Below, one piece after another: positions 5,418-35,832 of a stretch of 64,000 nucleotides of DNA. The first letter of the stretch is position 1, and the number at the start of each line of letters is the position of its first letter. Source of the DNA: an uncultured Desulfobacterales bacterium (GTDB lineage Bacteria > Desulfobacterota > Dissulfuribacteria > Dissulfuribacterales > QOAL01); NCBI GenBank assembly GCA_964638145.1, contig CAZXAK010000019.1, positions 1,117-65,116 on the forward strand. The letters are read 5' to 3'. The notes below the pieces were generated by a model. It made no database searches. It saw nothing but the letters and a program-made list of their open reading frames with translations, and was not told where the DNA came from. Both the position numbers and the translations under genes were made by a program.

Positions 5418-6419
5418 TCAGGAGTGTAGTGCCTGGGACAGGGCCACTGAAACGGCAACAGACGCCCCAACCATGGGATTGTTACCCATACCGATAAAAC
5501 CCATCATCTCCACATGGGCTGGCACGGAAGAACTCCCTGCAAACTGTGCGTCACAGTGCATGCGTCCCATGGTATCTGTCATACCGTATGAAGCAGGTCC
5601 GGCTGCCATGTTGTCCGGGTGAAGCGTACGGCCCGTTCCACCGCCAGAGGCCACGGAAAAGTAGTGCTTGCCCTGCTCAAAGCACTCCTTCTTGTAGGTA
5701 CCTGCCACAGGGTGCTGAAACCTGGTGGGGTTGGTGGAGTTACCGGTAATGGATACGTCCACTCCCTCGAGATGGTTTATTGCAACGCCTTCACGCACGT
5801 CATCTGCCCCGTAGCAGCGCACCTTTGCCCTGTCACCAGACGAAAACGAAGTCTCCTTCACAACCGTCAGCTCACCTGTCTTGTAATTGAACTTTGTCTC
5901 CACATGGGTGAAGCCATTTACCCTGGCAATGATATAGGCTGCATCCTTGCCAAGACCGTTCAGGATTACCTTCAGGGGATTTTTGCGCACCCTGTTTGCA
6001 GAGTTGGCAAGACCAATGGCACCCTCTGCAGCGGCAAAAGACTCATGCCCTGCGATAAAGGCAAAGCACCGGGTATCTTCATTAAGCAGGCGGGATGCCA
6101 GGTTACCGTGCCCAATGCCCACCTTCCTCTGATCTGCCACGGACCCGGGTATGCAGAAGGCCTGCAGACCCTCTCCGAGTGTTGAGGCTATCTCCTCTGC
6201 ACCACTGTTACCCTTCTTTATTGCAATGGCGGCCCCAAGAATGTAGGCCCAGCATGCATTTTCAAAGCAGATAGGCTGGACATCCTTAACTATCTTATAT
6301 ACATCCACGCCCATAGAGAGGCTCATCTCCCTGGCATCTTCCAAGCTGGCAATACCGTACTTCTCAAGTACCGGCCTGATCTGCGCCATCCTCTGCTCAT
6401 ATCCTTCAAATAAGGCCAT
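5418..6419 (-). CDS. GGGtGRT family protein (function unknown)
   Basis: 333 aa. The eponymous motif is present (VASGGGTGRTLHP). Confidence 0.8.
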   Translation of the reverse strand: MALFEGYEQRMAQIRPVLEKYGIASLEDAREMSLSMGVDVYKIVKDVQPICFENACWAYILGAAIAIKKGNSGAEEIASTLGEGLQAFCIPGSVADQRKVGIGHGNLASRLLNEDTRCFAFIAGHESFAAAEGAIGLANSANRVRKNPLKVILNGLGKDAAYIIARVNGFTHVETKFNYKTGELTVVKETSFSSGDRAKVRCYGADDVREGVAINHLEGVDVSITGNSTNPTRFQHPVAGTYKKECFEQGKHYFSVASGGGTGRTLHPDNMAAGPASYGMTDTMGRMHCDAQFAGSSSVPAHVEMMGFIGMGNNPMVGASVAVSVALSQALHS

Positions 6420-28386: not shown

Positions 28387-28466
28387 ACACGACCAAACCA
28401 TCCCTCCCTCTCCTGCTCATCACCCAGCCCTCAATATTCAACATTTTTTACAGAGCCTGACAATAT

Positions 28467-28482
28467 TGGCACACAGGTTGCA
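28467..28482 (+). promoter_or_regulatory. sigma-54 (-24/-12) promoter
   Basis: TGGCACacaggTTGCA. This matches the TGGCAC-N5-TTGCA consensus, including the GG-N10-GC spacing, and is intergenic. Confidence 0.6.
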
Positions 28483-28538
28483 TGTTAATATAATCAAACA
28501 GCTAATCATAATAACCAGAAAAAGCGGGAGCAAGAAAA

Positions 28539-28652
28539 ATGAAATGCCTTAAAAATCCCCGCAGACCCACGGAACCAGCCATTTGCAACAACTGCAGGCG
28601 TAAGTGTGAAAAAGCGGGAAAACGGAAAAAAACATTAAAAATGAAAAAATAA
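28539..28652 (+). CDS. candidate 37-aa basic Cys-rich small protein
   Basis: MKCLKNPRRPTEPAICNNCRRKCEKAGKRKKTLKMKK. GGGAG lies upstream. The ORF sits between the sigma-54 promoter and the terminator and is too short for the ORF track. Coding status is unproven. Confidence 0.3.
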   Translation: MKCLKNPRRPTEPAICNNCRRKCEKAGKRKKTLKMKK

Positions 28653-28763
28653 AAAGCTGCCAAGACAGCACGGGTGCCACAGACAGTTGCCATAAGCAGA
28701 TGCCATAATTTGTTTAACATGCGCAACGTATGTTAACATCTCTCCTCCTTCTCCTCCTCCATT

Positions 28764-28797
28764 AAGCGCAGGACATTCGTCCTGCGCTTATTTTTTT
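28764..28797 (+). terminator. intrinsic terminator
   Basis: aagcgcaggac-attc-gtcctgcgctt (11-bp stem) followed by a run of T residues. Confidence 0.8.
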
Positions 28798-28799
28798 CT

Positions 28800-28964
28800 C
28801 ATACTACACGACACCTGAAATGCAGAAGCAATTGGCAGAGGCGGATGGTGCTTTTTCTCATGGTTTTGACCGCGGGCAAATATATCATTAACAAGGCATT
28901 GCAACTGATGAGCTTTAAAAGCATGATAAAAGCACCATCCGACGTATAGGTGTCGTGTAGTATG
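28800..28964. mobile_element. MITE-like element, family 1 (reference copy B)
   Basis: 165 bp. Perfect 17-bp terminal inverted repeats catactacacgacacct / aggtgtcgtgtagtatg. Long imperfect internal palindrome. Flanked by tttttttct (28791-28799) and tttttttct (28966-28974). Confidence 0.85.
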
Positions 28965-28981
28965 ATTTTTTTCTACTCCAT

Positions 28982-29027
28982 CCTGAATCGAGCGTTTCCA
29001 ATCATGTGAGATTTTATCTGTAATTAC
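28982..29027. repeat. MITE family 2 end-fragment
   Basis: cctgaatcgagcgtttccaatcatgtgagattttatctgtaattac parallels the family 2 end cctgaattgagcgtttcaaatcatgtgaaatattgttttgtctttaattac. It contains the stop codon of the 29024-30337 gene. Confidence 0.55.
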
Positions 29028-30337
29028 TCGGCAGGCAGACCAAATATAGTCACTCCGGTACAGAGGAGCAGTACCATGAAATAGCATATCATGCGCCTGT
29101 AGGGATTAGGTATGGACGGATCACTGCGCACCACAAATATTGCCACAAGACACTGCAATGCGTAGTAGAGGGCAAAGGCACGAGAGGCAAAACTTATGAT
29201 CTCGTACACATTTGTCAGCCAGGTAAGACAGATGGCCGCCACTGAAACTATGGCATAGGCATATCTGGTATCAAAATGCCCCTTGATGATCGACTCTATT
29301 AGTCCGGAGCAACCTGCGTCATCTGCCGTGGCGGCGGCAAACTGGCTACATATGGCAGTTACCGTGATGAGCAGAGGCAGCACCGAGGCAACGATACTGG
29401 ACAACTCTATAATTGCCGTTATTCCCGTATCATGGAGGTTCCCTGCCCTGCTTACCACCAGGGCCATCAGGGCGAGAAAGACAAGATAGATGGCTGAAGA
29501 GATGAGCTGGGCCCAGCGCATGGTACGAATTCGTACCTCGCGGGGATGTTCTGAACCAAGGAAACGGGAGGTCTCAAACCCCTGAACCACTATCAGCATA
29601 CCCATTATGAGCCGTGCCAGATGAATTTTGTCCTCACTTATGGGGATGGCCTTAATGTGCCAATCACCCTGAATATATGCAACTGCATTGAACGAGGTGA
29701 GACCTGCAATAAGGGCCGCAATCATGGCCAGATTTATCCCTACTGCCACACGCTCAACGCGCTCTATTCCCCTGAGGCCTCGCCAGAACCCTATGAGTGC
29801 AATACCTGTAAGTATTACTGTAACCAGGATACGACCATAAAACGCGTTGTGAATGGACAGGGCGTGGAGAGCAAAACTTGCAAGTAACTGAAGATAGTAA
29901 GAGACAGAGACACAGTAGGCACCTGCAAGAGCGATGTGTGAGACTCTCTCAACGATTTCCGCGGTCTCCACTGCAGCTACCTGTCGGGCTGCATTACGGT
30001 GCCCTATATGCAGCCTGTGTTCTGTCCTTTTAAACGTGGAGGGAAGCGGTATGGTTTCAAGCATGGGTTCACCATAACGGATGTTGAACCGTATGACACC
30101 TCCCACAGCGTAGGCCATTAGAAGCAGGCATGCCATGACCACCACGGCATAGTTTCCGGCGTTTGCATAGAGCAGCGGGGCACACACAAGGAAGCCACTA
30201 CCCATGATGGAGGCAAGTGGGGTAATGGTGGCACGCCATGCTGCTGAGGTACCAAGCGGCTTATAGAACAGCAACACACTGGCAGTGACAACAAGGGTAC
30301 AGAGTACTATAAAATCAGGCCCGGAGAGTTGGCTCAC
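29024..30337 (-). CDS. polytopic membrane protein, function unknown
   Basis: 437 aa with about 11-12 predicted hydrophobic helices. I recognise no diagnostic motif. Confidence 0.6.
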   Translation of the reverse strand: MSQLSGPDFIVLCTLVVTASVLLFYKPLGTSAAWRATITPLASIMGSGFLVCAPLLYANAGNYAVVVMACLLLMAYAVGGVIRFNIRYGEPMLETIPLPSTFKRTEHRLHIGHRNAARQVAAVETAEIVERVSHIALAGAYCVSVSYYLQLLASFALHALSIHNAFYGRILVTVILTGIALIGFWRGLRGIERVERVAVGINLAMIAALIAGLTSFNAVAYIQGDWHIKAIPISEDKIHLARLIMGMLIVVQGFETSRFLGSEHPREVRIRTMRWAQLISSAIYLVFLALMALVVSRAGNLHDTGITAIIELSSIVASVLPLLITVTAICSQFAAATADDAGCSGLIESIIKGHFDTRYAYAIVSVAAICLTWLTNVYEIISFASRAFALYYALQCLVAIFVVRSDPSIPNPYRRMICYFMVLLLCTGVTIFGLPAE

Positions 30338-35744: not shown

Positions 35745-35832
35745 TGGTGCCCGGGGCGGGAGTCGAACCCGCACAGCGTCAGACGCCGAGGGATTTTAAA
35801 TCCCTTGTGTCTACCAATTCCACCACCCGGGC
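35745..35832 (-). tRNA. tRNA-Leu (anticodon UAA), CCA encoded
   Basis: The minus strand reads GCCCGGGTGGTGGAATTGGTAGACACAAGGGATTTAAAATCCCTCGGCGTCTGACGCTGTGCGGGTTCGACTCCCGCCCCGGGCACCA. It has a 7-bp acceptor stem, an anticodon loop TTTAAAA, a long variable arm and a GTTCGACTC T-loop. Confidence 0.9.

Follow-up and report, generated by a model that had tools for sequence, protein, structure and literature searches.

The window analysed here is a 64,000-nt stretch of the genome of an uncultured Desulfobacterales bacterium (contig CAZXAK010000019.1, positions 1,117 to 65,116). Within an intergenic gap of 637 nt (28387-29023), given as 640 nt in a first-pass annotation of the same sequence, lies what is probably a free-standing transcription unit of the chromosome that yields two products, a four-cysteine (Cys4) microprotein and a small RNA (sRNA) complementary to Shine-Dalgarno (SD) sequences. 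The evidence consists of sequence conservation, coding selection, motif conservation and predicted folding. The annotation had proposed a Cys-rich open reading frame (ORF) or a CU-rich sRNA; protein-level selection on the ORF, together with DNA-level invariance of the 3' module, indicates that the locus most likely encodes both. Reading along the plus strand, the unit is laid out as a sigma-54 box, GGGAG, a 37-codon ORF, a variable spacer, a short box, a hairpin, a CU tract and a terminator:

28441-28466, plus strand: block directly 5' of the -24 box, TTTACAgagccTGACAAtat in the window, in which two TTWCA-like half sites are separated by about 11-12 bp
28467-28482, plus strand: predicted sigma-54 (-24/-12) promoter TGGCAC-N5-TTGCA, TGGCACacaggTTGCA, with a predicted start near 28493
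28526-28530, plus strand: SD sequence GGGAG, 8 nt before the ATG
28539-28652, plus strand: gene for a basic 37-aa microprotein, MKCLKNPRRPTEPAICNNCRRKCEKAGKRKKTLKMKK, recognised from codon-position variability and homologues
28653-28699, plus strand: variable spacer, gapped and poorly aligned, conserved neither in length nor in sequence
28656-28669, plus strand: small hairpin GCUG-CCAAGA-CAGC within the spacer
28700-28712, plus strand: invariant box ATGCCATAATTTG (also written ATGCYATAATTTG), in which one C/T position varies, in 9/9 lineages
28714-28736, plus strand: 10-bp hairpin UUAACAUGCG-CAA-CGUAUGUUAA (arms 28714-23 and 28727-36)
28737-28762, plus strand: predicted single-stranded seed region, 24-nt block CAUCUCUCCUCCUUCUCCUCCUCC, identical in all eight lineages that reach it
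28763-28797, plus strand: intrinsic terminator with a 12-bp stem (28763-28790; 7 GC pairs), a 4-nt loop and U7

The annotation had made its proposal depend on conservation of the promoter, ORF and terminator arrangement in related genomes, and we found this arrangement kept in nine Desulfobulbaceae-like lineages of Thermodesulfobacteriota (the window genome and L002, L005, L007, L008, L129, L130, L132 and L134). The lineages were gathered from contigs encoding homologues of YkgJ, the product of the gene upstream of the unit, and by one genome scan with a degenerate ORF pattern, which gave L007 and L008. In all nine the unit sits downstream of ispA-dxs-ykgJ, and for the seven whose YkgJ was among the hits of the homologue search it shares 51-62% identity with the window protein. 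The sigma-54 box and the ORF were found in nine lineages, the CU tract in eight and the terminator in seven, the lower counts being due to L132 and L134, which end at contig ends. The next gene downstream varies, from a membrane protein gene on the opposite strand in the window to a pilin gene, a DEAD/MrfA-type helicase gene (twice), an MCP gene and unknowns, and the unit therefore ends at its terminator.

Beyond these lineages the complete unit was not recovered. The YkgJ protein search of genome contigs gave no close relative, and next to the YkgJ homologues of about 42% identity (from Electrothrix aarhusensis, an uncultured Desulfobulbus and one metagenome-assembled genome) the unit was absent by gene table, covariance model and motif searches; those ykgJ genes sit in a different neighbourhood, with def-fmt and plsY. 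A covariance model of the module (R1) retrieved orthologous copies only, with no extra copy in the window or the other loci, and viral contigs matched neither the sRNA pattern nor the ORF pattern. Scanning metagenomes with the bare CU tract produced at least 120 low-complexity chance matches, and none among the matches listed had the hairpin or the terminator.

The 37-codon ORF is almost certainly a real gene under purifying selection at the protein level. Over its first 30 codons the variable columns at codon positions 1, 2 and 3 number 8, 1 and 26, and the mean pairwise synonymous value (pS) is 0.78, which is saturated, against a non-synonymous value (pN) of 0.045, much of which reflects CGN/AGR arginine switching. 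The part of the peptide reading MKCLKNPRRPTEPAICNNCRRKCEKAGKR is essentially invariant and is followed by a variable K/R-rich tail, in agreement with the earlier description of an extremely basic peptide with four Cys. All four (C3, C16, C19 and C23) are invariant across 11 sequences with the spacing C-x12-C-x2-C-x3-C. The ribosome-binding site (RBS) had been called weak; a conserved GGGAG makes it modest instead. This motif is present in 7/9 lineages, the L007 and L129 copies being shifted relative to the others within GCGGGAGAAT, and the variants are GGGAA in L008 and AGGAAAG in L130. Gene callers skipped the ORF in every clade contig whose gene table was inspected, and the annotation had remarked that it falls below a 60-aa cutoff. 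An AlphaFold2 model built on a thin alignment of 3 sequences joins residues 3-4 to 15-16 by a beta-bridge and places a helix at 17-36, with a pLDDT of 71, and the microprotein is plausibly a small zinc finger in which the four Cys would hold Zn. It had no match in Pfam, NCBIfam, PDB sequences or Foldseek. In the window genome only, a 22-nt direct repeat of 82% identity links the 5' untranslated region (UTR) and SD (GAAAAAGCGGGAGCAAGAAAAA, 28518-28539) to codons 24-30 (GAAAAAGCGGGAAAACGGAAAA, 28608-28629).

The region 3' of the ORF and its spacer is conserved in a different manner. The 24-nt block CATCTCTCCTCCTTCTCCTCCTCC is a tandem of two UCUCCUCCU units and contains three CCUCC motifs, CCUCC being the core that is conserved in 16S anti-SD sequences (PMC10783764). 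A CU-only tract of 20 nt (28741-28760) had been described ahead of the terminator, and the full pyrimidine run is 22 nt (28739-28760); the 20-mer had no match in 100 shuffles even with up to 3 mismatches. Both flanking structures were also recovered. The arms of the 10-bp hairpin pair in 95% of cells across 8 lineages, and the terminator, first placed at 28764-28797, has a stem that starts at 28763 and a T7 ending at 28797. The terminator is kept in 7/7 lineages with one-sided changes only (G-C/G-U or A-U/G-U). The 3' 101 nt fold with -31.6 kcal/mol compared with -9.2 for shuffles (z -9.4), and the consensus fold consists of hairpin and terminator with the CU tract open. In a predicted short form of 82-88 nt starting at the hairpin the tract has an unpaired probability of 1.0, consistent with the sRNA-like layout with a single-stranded CU seed that had been suggested. 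This module is nearly invariant although synonymous change has reached saturation within a few dozen nucleotides of it, implying strong selection on the nucleotide sequence itself, and from these sequence comparisons the 3' module is very likely a functional RNA.

Immediately ahead of the hairpin is the invariant box, which ends 1-2 nt before it and reads as an extended -10 element TGnYATAAT (TGCCATAAT, 28701-28709) placed 5-8 nt before the hairpin, the distance given for the -10-like hexamer being 4-5 nt. It has no conserved -35, and TGNYATAAT occurs 7 times in the window where 3.6 are expected. Judged on its sequence, the box could be an extended -10 promoter or, equally, an AU-rich processing or endonuclease site.

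The element at the 5' end of the unit had been described as a near-perfect -24/-12 match; it is a perfect one. TGGCAC-N5-TTGCW occurs with zero mismatches at a single position across the 64 kb, and 20 of 100 shuffled windows also have at least one perfect match (mean 0.21), so the match taken alone is weak evidence. Its significance comes from the fact that the whole arrangement is kept in the nine lineages. TGGCAY-N5-TTGCW is found at the equivalent position in all nine with a different N5 spacer in nearly every one, the exact spacing of GG at -24 and GC at -12 is held throughout while the flanks vary, and the box lies 28-59 nt from the ORF. Among 142 loci the pattern is confined to the unit, apart from one copy ahead of a pilin gene in L002 and another, apparently by chance, in L080. 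The second perfect L002 box (TGGCACACCTGTTGCA, 5541-5556) is about 185 nt upstream of a gene for a 75-aa N-methyl (type IV pilin-like) protein; therefore the consensus is in use elsewhere in the clade. Overall, a functional sigma-54 promoter at this position is highly probable.

Additional conservation is seen directly 5' of the -24 element, where the nine-lineage alignment has invariant T/ACA columns immediately before TGGCAC. The half sites of the window are also found in the other eight lineages (L002, L005, L007, L008, L129, L130, L132 and L134), for example as GTTTCAtcaaatGTTACA in L007, and the L005 block, TATCAAACTGTTA, is a perfect IHF consensus. The block is possibly a binding site for IHF or for a response regulator, which makes it a candidate only.

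These results suggest the following scheme for the unit, in which we infer transcription, sigma-54 dependence, release of a short RNA, anti-SD pairing and metal binding. The sigma-54 promoter, together with a signal-responsive enhancer-binding activator, would drive a transcript of about 305 nt ending at 28763-28797. Translation of its 5' half would give a very basic 37-aa protein whose four Cys could hold Zn in a finger made of a beta-hairpin plus a helix. The last 85 nt or so would be the sRNA body, with the 5' hairpin, the 24-nt unstructured CU tract and the terminator with its U tail, and this body may be released either through its own extended -10 box or by cleavage at the AU-rich box. 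The three CCUCC motifs of the CU tract would then pair with the purine-rich SD regions of target mRNAs and block initiation of translation. Whether the 3' RNA acts in trans by such anti-SD pairing is a point on which we regard the evidence as evenly balanced.

Several observations weigh against this scheme. Target prediction for the CU tract against RBS regions had been proposed, and a duplex scan across the 64 kb window gave no convincing target. No conserved target was found, and the RBSs of neighbouring genes pair with the tract no more strongly than ordinary SDs, at about -11 kcal/mol. Accessibility is also reduced in the long form: the full transcript of 265-305 nt lets the tract base-pair with its purine-rich coding part, which brings the unpaired probability of the tract to 0.42-0.72. 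An invariance of 24 nt exceeds the 7-12 nt of a typical sRNA seed, hinting at another or an additional constraint. Covariation, which had been suggested as a check on homologous regions, proved thin: double changes occur at two hairpin pairs in L134 only and do not rise above shuffles, the other changes being mostly G-C to G-U. Limited to one lineage and not significant, the hairpin covariation is anecdotal, and a palindromic DNA operator would look alike. With respect to the promoter, there is no clear palindromic enhancer upstream, where the expected region overlaps the conserved 3' coding end of ykgJ, and no activator is encoded among ten large flanking genes examined with Pfam (13.5-23 kb and 35-44 kb). 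A sigma-70-like TTGGCA-17-TATAAT (11/12 matches, 28466-28494) overlaps the sigma-54 box, in the window genome only.

Among nearby genes, dxs and ispA have ordinary SDs, and ykgJ can pair strongly through GGAGGAGGGG in the window genome only. As a side observation, this extended SD of the window ykgJ has a predicted pairing energy with the CU tract of -21.9 kcal/mol and is not kept in orthologues. Self-regulation through the RBS of the unit itself was considered and rejected; the tract duplex has -8 to -12 kcal/mol across all nine lineages, a strength that an ordinary SD would match.

Possible reasons for the 24-nt invariance are the SD/anti-SD system as a universal partner, a protein ligand, or a long and perfectly matched target lying outside the 64 kb scanned. 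The first of these leads to a more speculative proposal, and a distinctly unlikely one, in which both products together would form a signal-controlled brake on translation initiation and the sRNA, with its three CCUCC cores, would mimic the 3' end of 16S rRNA; CCUCCUUCU is closely similar to the terminal sequence of 16S. The sRNA would titrate SD sequences genome-wide, assisted by the basic Cys4 microprotein binding the ribosome or RNA. The 24 nt would be absolutely invariant because their partner is the universal SD/anti-SD system and not one evolving target; the proposal, if true, would also explain gating by a sigma-54 activator.

An alternative to the two-product unit is that the transcript is an ordinary small-protein mRNA whose 3' module works only in cis, as a stabiliser, as terminator context or as a landing pad for a protein such as Rho or S1. 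Rho prefers YC-rich RNA, and selection clearly acts on the ORF as the product in every lineage. The lack of targets in the scans, the invariance beyond the needs of a seed and the fact that the long form partly pairs the tract with coding sequence would all be accommodated by this possibility. However, the distant protein homologues described below manage without the module, which is therefore not needed to express the protein, and pairing of the tract with its own RBS is weak in the nine lineages. Furthermore, an independent sRNA would need this very layout of hairpin, open tract and terminator, preceded by a -10-like box directly ahead of the hairpin. We consider a role in cis only to be possible, though rather unlikely.

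Two further alternatives concern DNA elements, and both appear improbable. The 3' block might be mainly a sigma-70 extended -10 combined with a palindrome, TTAACATAC-N-GTATGTTAA, serving as the operator of a dimeric repressor, in which case the RNA hairpin would be incidental. In line with such an operator, variation is seen at the centre of the palindrome but neither in its arms nor in the TGCYATAAT box, and the double changes in L134 are symmetric. The invariant CU tract and the terminator are left unexplained by an operator, which moreover does not speak against an sRNA with its own regulated promoter but fits with one. At the 5' end, transcription might instead be driven by sigma-70 from the TTGGCA-17-TATAAT sequence, with the sigma-54 match a coincidence of the kind seen in 20% of the shuffled windows; the overlapping hexamers match 11 of 12 consensus positions, and the distant homologues use TTGACA-type promoters. 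These hexamers are not kept in the other eight lineages, several of which have ATGGCA or CTGGCA at -35, with variation also at -10, as opposed to the exact GG -24/GC -12 spacing in all nine. In the window genome only, the locus may use both promoters.

The small ORF followed by hairpins and a terminator has the classic layout of a leader peptide with an attenuator controlling a downstream operon, yet no downstream gene is conserved (its identity and strand differ between lineages), no alternative antiterminator pairing is predicted and conservation of the peptide is that of a protein, not of a series of regulatory codons, making attenuation very improbable. That the unit is a purely non-coding sRNA with a fortuitous ORF, or that its product is the 34-codon minus-strand ORF (28635-28739) described earlier behind a strong RBS, is scarcely credible: both ORFs exist in the window and the minus-strand tract reads GGAGGAGGAGAAGGAGGAGAG, but the plus-strand ORF combines saturated synonymous change with almost no amino-acid change and its protein has homologues in distant taxa, whereas the minus-strand ORF has a length of 8 aa in L005, a frameshift in L130 and otherwise lengths of 22-66 aa, its first 13 residues or so being kept because they mirror the conserved hairpin DNA.

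Returning to the two-product unit, the history of its parts was examined with a HMMER scan of 1.84 billion cluster representatives, which identified two true distant homologues of the microprotein. One, P0095, is DBT_0496 of Dissulfuribacter thermophilus (49 aa) and the other, P0097, is from a metagenomic lineage (41 aa); a third match, P0096, was rejected as a spurious repeat protein. Both keep C3, C16, C19 and C23, and when aligned to the window protein they are 62-68% identical to it, or 74-77% if only the matched residues 1-31 are counted. In Dissulfuribacter the gene follows xseB-ispA-dxs and a YkgJ-like gene, has a TTGACA-16-TATTTT promoter with no sigma-54 box and is followed by a convergent gene 7 nt past its stop. 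The P0097-lineage copy comes after a DUF374 gene and likewise adjoins a convergent gene. The sigma-54 box and the CU module are absent from both loci, and the protein is therefore the older element. Based on these comparisons, the microprotein gene is the ancestral part, to which a sigma-54 promoter and an sRNA module were added together in one Desulfobulbaceae-like clade only.

At the loci of the distant lineages (L138, 4001-4160; L139, 4001-4145) a distance of 7-18 nt separates the end of the microprotein gene from that of the convergent gene, encoding CheX/DUF3334 in one and a zinc-ribbon protein in the other, with a tsaB-rseP-dxr cluster beyond the convergent genes. With dxs or dxr nearby across lineages, the microprotein keeps an association with isoprenoid-pathway neighbours.

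The surroundings of the unit are those of an ordinary chromosome, with genes for a V-type ATPase, a sigma-70-family factor, FtsK and peptidases, and the sole Rfam match in the window at gathering thresholds is an 85-nt tRNA gene (35748-35832, minus strand). Upstream of the unit are ispA, dxs and then the gene for the YkgJ/CxxCxxCC cysteine-cluster protein, whose named homologues are from Desulfobulbaceae, Candidatus Electrothrix, Desulfobulbus and 'Thermodesulfobacteriota' metagenome-assembled genomes. The likeliest start of this gene is ATG 27514, corresponding to the 290-aa database form, rather than GTG 27451. Directly 3' of its stop is a C-rich, G-poor patch, TCCCTCCCTCTCCT (28401-28414), and comparable CCC/CTC-rich runs follow the ykgJ stop in L002, L005, L007, L129, L130 and L134. 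Rho may load at these patches, which would set ykgJ apart from the unit.

On the other side, the region 28790-28974 directly after the terminator holds a 167-nt element whose ends are perfect inverted repeats of 18 nt (28799-28816 and 28948-28965). A further inverted repeat of 14 nt lies inside it, and the direct repeat ATTTTTTTCT flanks it (28790-28799 and 28965-28974). It folds as one long hairpin (z -7.3), and from its sequence it looks like an insertion of the miniature inverted-repeat transposable element type into the T-run of the terminator, with target-site duplication. Sequences past the terminator are unrelated in the orthologous loci. The element has no second copy in the window and no Rfam match, and a 99-aa ORF that overlaps it (28788-29087, minus strand) is probably spurious.

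In the literature covered by the search, neither an RNA of this sort in Desulfobulbaceae nor a dual-function RNA driven by sigma-54 was found described, and a 2025 review of dual-function sRNAs never mentions RpoN. The unit nonetheless resembles dual-function sRNAs like SgrS/SgrT, SR1/SR1P, SR7/SR7P, Spot 42/SpfP and RNAIII/delta-hemolysin in being a short transcript with one promoter and one terminator that combines a protein of fewer than 50 aa with a separate unstructured region suited to base-pairing. Neither in SgrS nor in the unit does the ORF overlap the seed (PMC12310071, PMC9438474). There is no sequence relationship, and the known examples are from Enterobacteria or Firmicutes whereas the unit is from Thermodesulfobacteriota. 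It also differs in its sigma-54 promoter and in a protein family older than the RNA module, and its activities are predicted.

A second likeness is to sRNAs derived from 3' UTRs, which form mixed circuits with their parent mRNA, as CpxQ does with CpxP, MicX being a variant with a promoter inside the ORF or of its own (PMC9438474). In these systems, too, the sRNA body shares the terminator of the mRNA, and in the unit the box before the 5' hairpin would be the promoter or the cleavage site. The protein and the sRNA would likewise be co-induced by a single signal, but the parent gene here is tiny, at 37 codons. DapZ and MicL are reportedly variants of this class with an ORF-internal promoter or a promoter of their own. 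Known sigma-54-dependent sRNAs, namely Qrr1-5, GlmY, CrcZ and NrsZ, are non-coding. As proposed for the unit, they are sRNA-type transcripts under a -24/-12 promoter and so under a signal-sensing enhancer-binding protein, with no sequence or structural relationship to the unit.

With respect to the CU tract, the closest designs are the Burkholderia double-hairpin 'toxic' sRNAs and the Neisseria NmsRs, which have unpaired CU stretches complementary to ribosome-binding sites (PMC5688073). Overexpression of one of them, ncS27, slows growth through its CU region (PMC5688073). The Rfam family RF02278 and NmsRa/b, like the unit, have two CU-rich, RBS-complementary repeats in unpaired RNA just upstream of the terminator. 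Covariance scores for the unit were 29.5 bits for RF02278 (E 8e-4 in an 801-nt search; below the 50-bit gathering threshold) and 22.3 bits for RF02877, NmsRb (E 0.51; below the 52-bit threshold). Hairpin 1 of RF02278, with the second CU stretch in its loop, is mostly deleted in the alignment of the unit, which has one continuous single-stranded CU tract between an unrelated 5' hairpin and the terminator. Furthermore, RF02278 and NmsRa/b occur in 3-5 copies or as a tandem pair, as opposed to the single copy here, which is in another phylum and attached to a protein-coding mRNA. On this analysis the likeness to CU-rich anti-RBS sRNAs is one of design, not of family membership.

The unit adds an unannotated conserved microprotein family and an sRNA-like module to Thermodesulfobacteriota, which have almost no characterised post-transcriptional regulators, in a clade known only from metagenome-assembled genomes, and the missed ORF illustrates what a 60-aa cutoff hides. 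Dual-output RNAs number about a dozen, and the unit, if the two-product reading is true, would be the first example under a sigma-54 promoter. An ancestral gene gaining a promoter type and a 3' module in one clade also bears on the origin of 3'-end sRNAs. Overall, the unit is a new case of known kinds, the dual-output small RNA locus, the CU-rich anti-SD sRNA and the Cys4 microprotein, and not a new principle.

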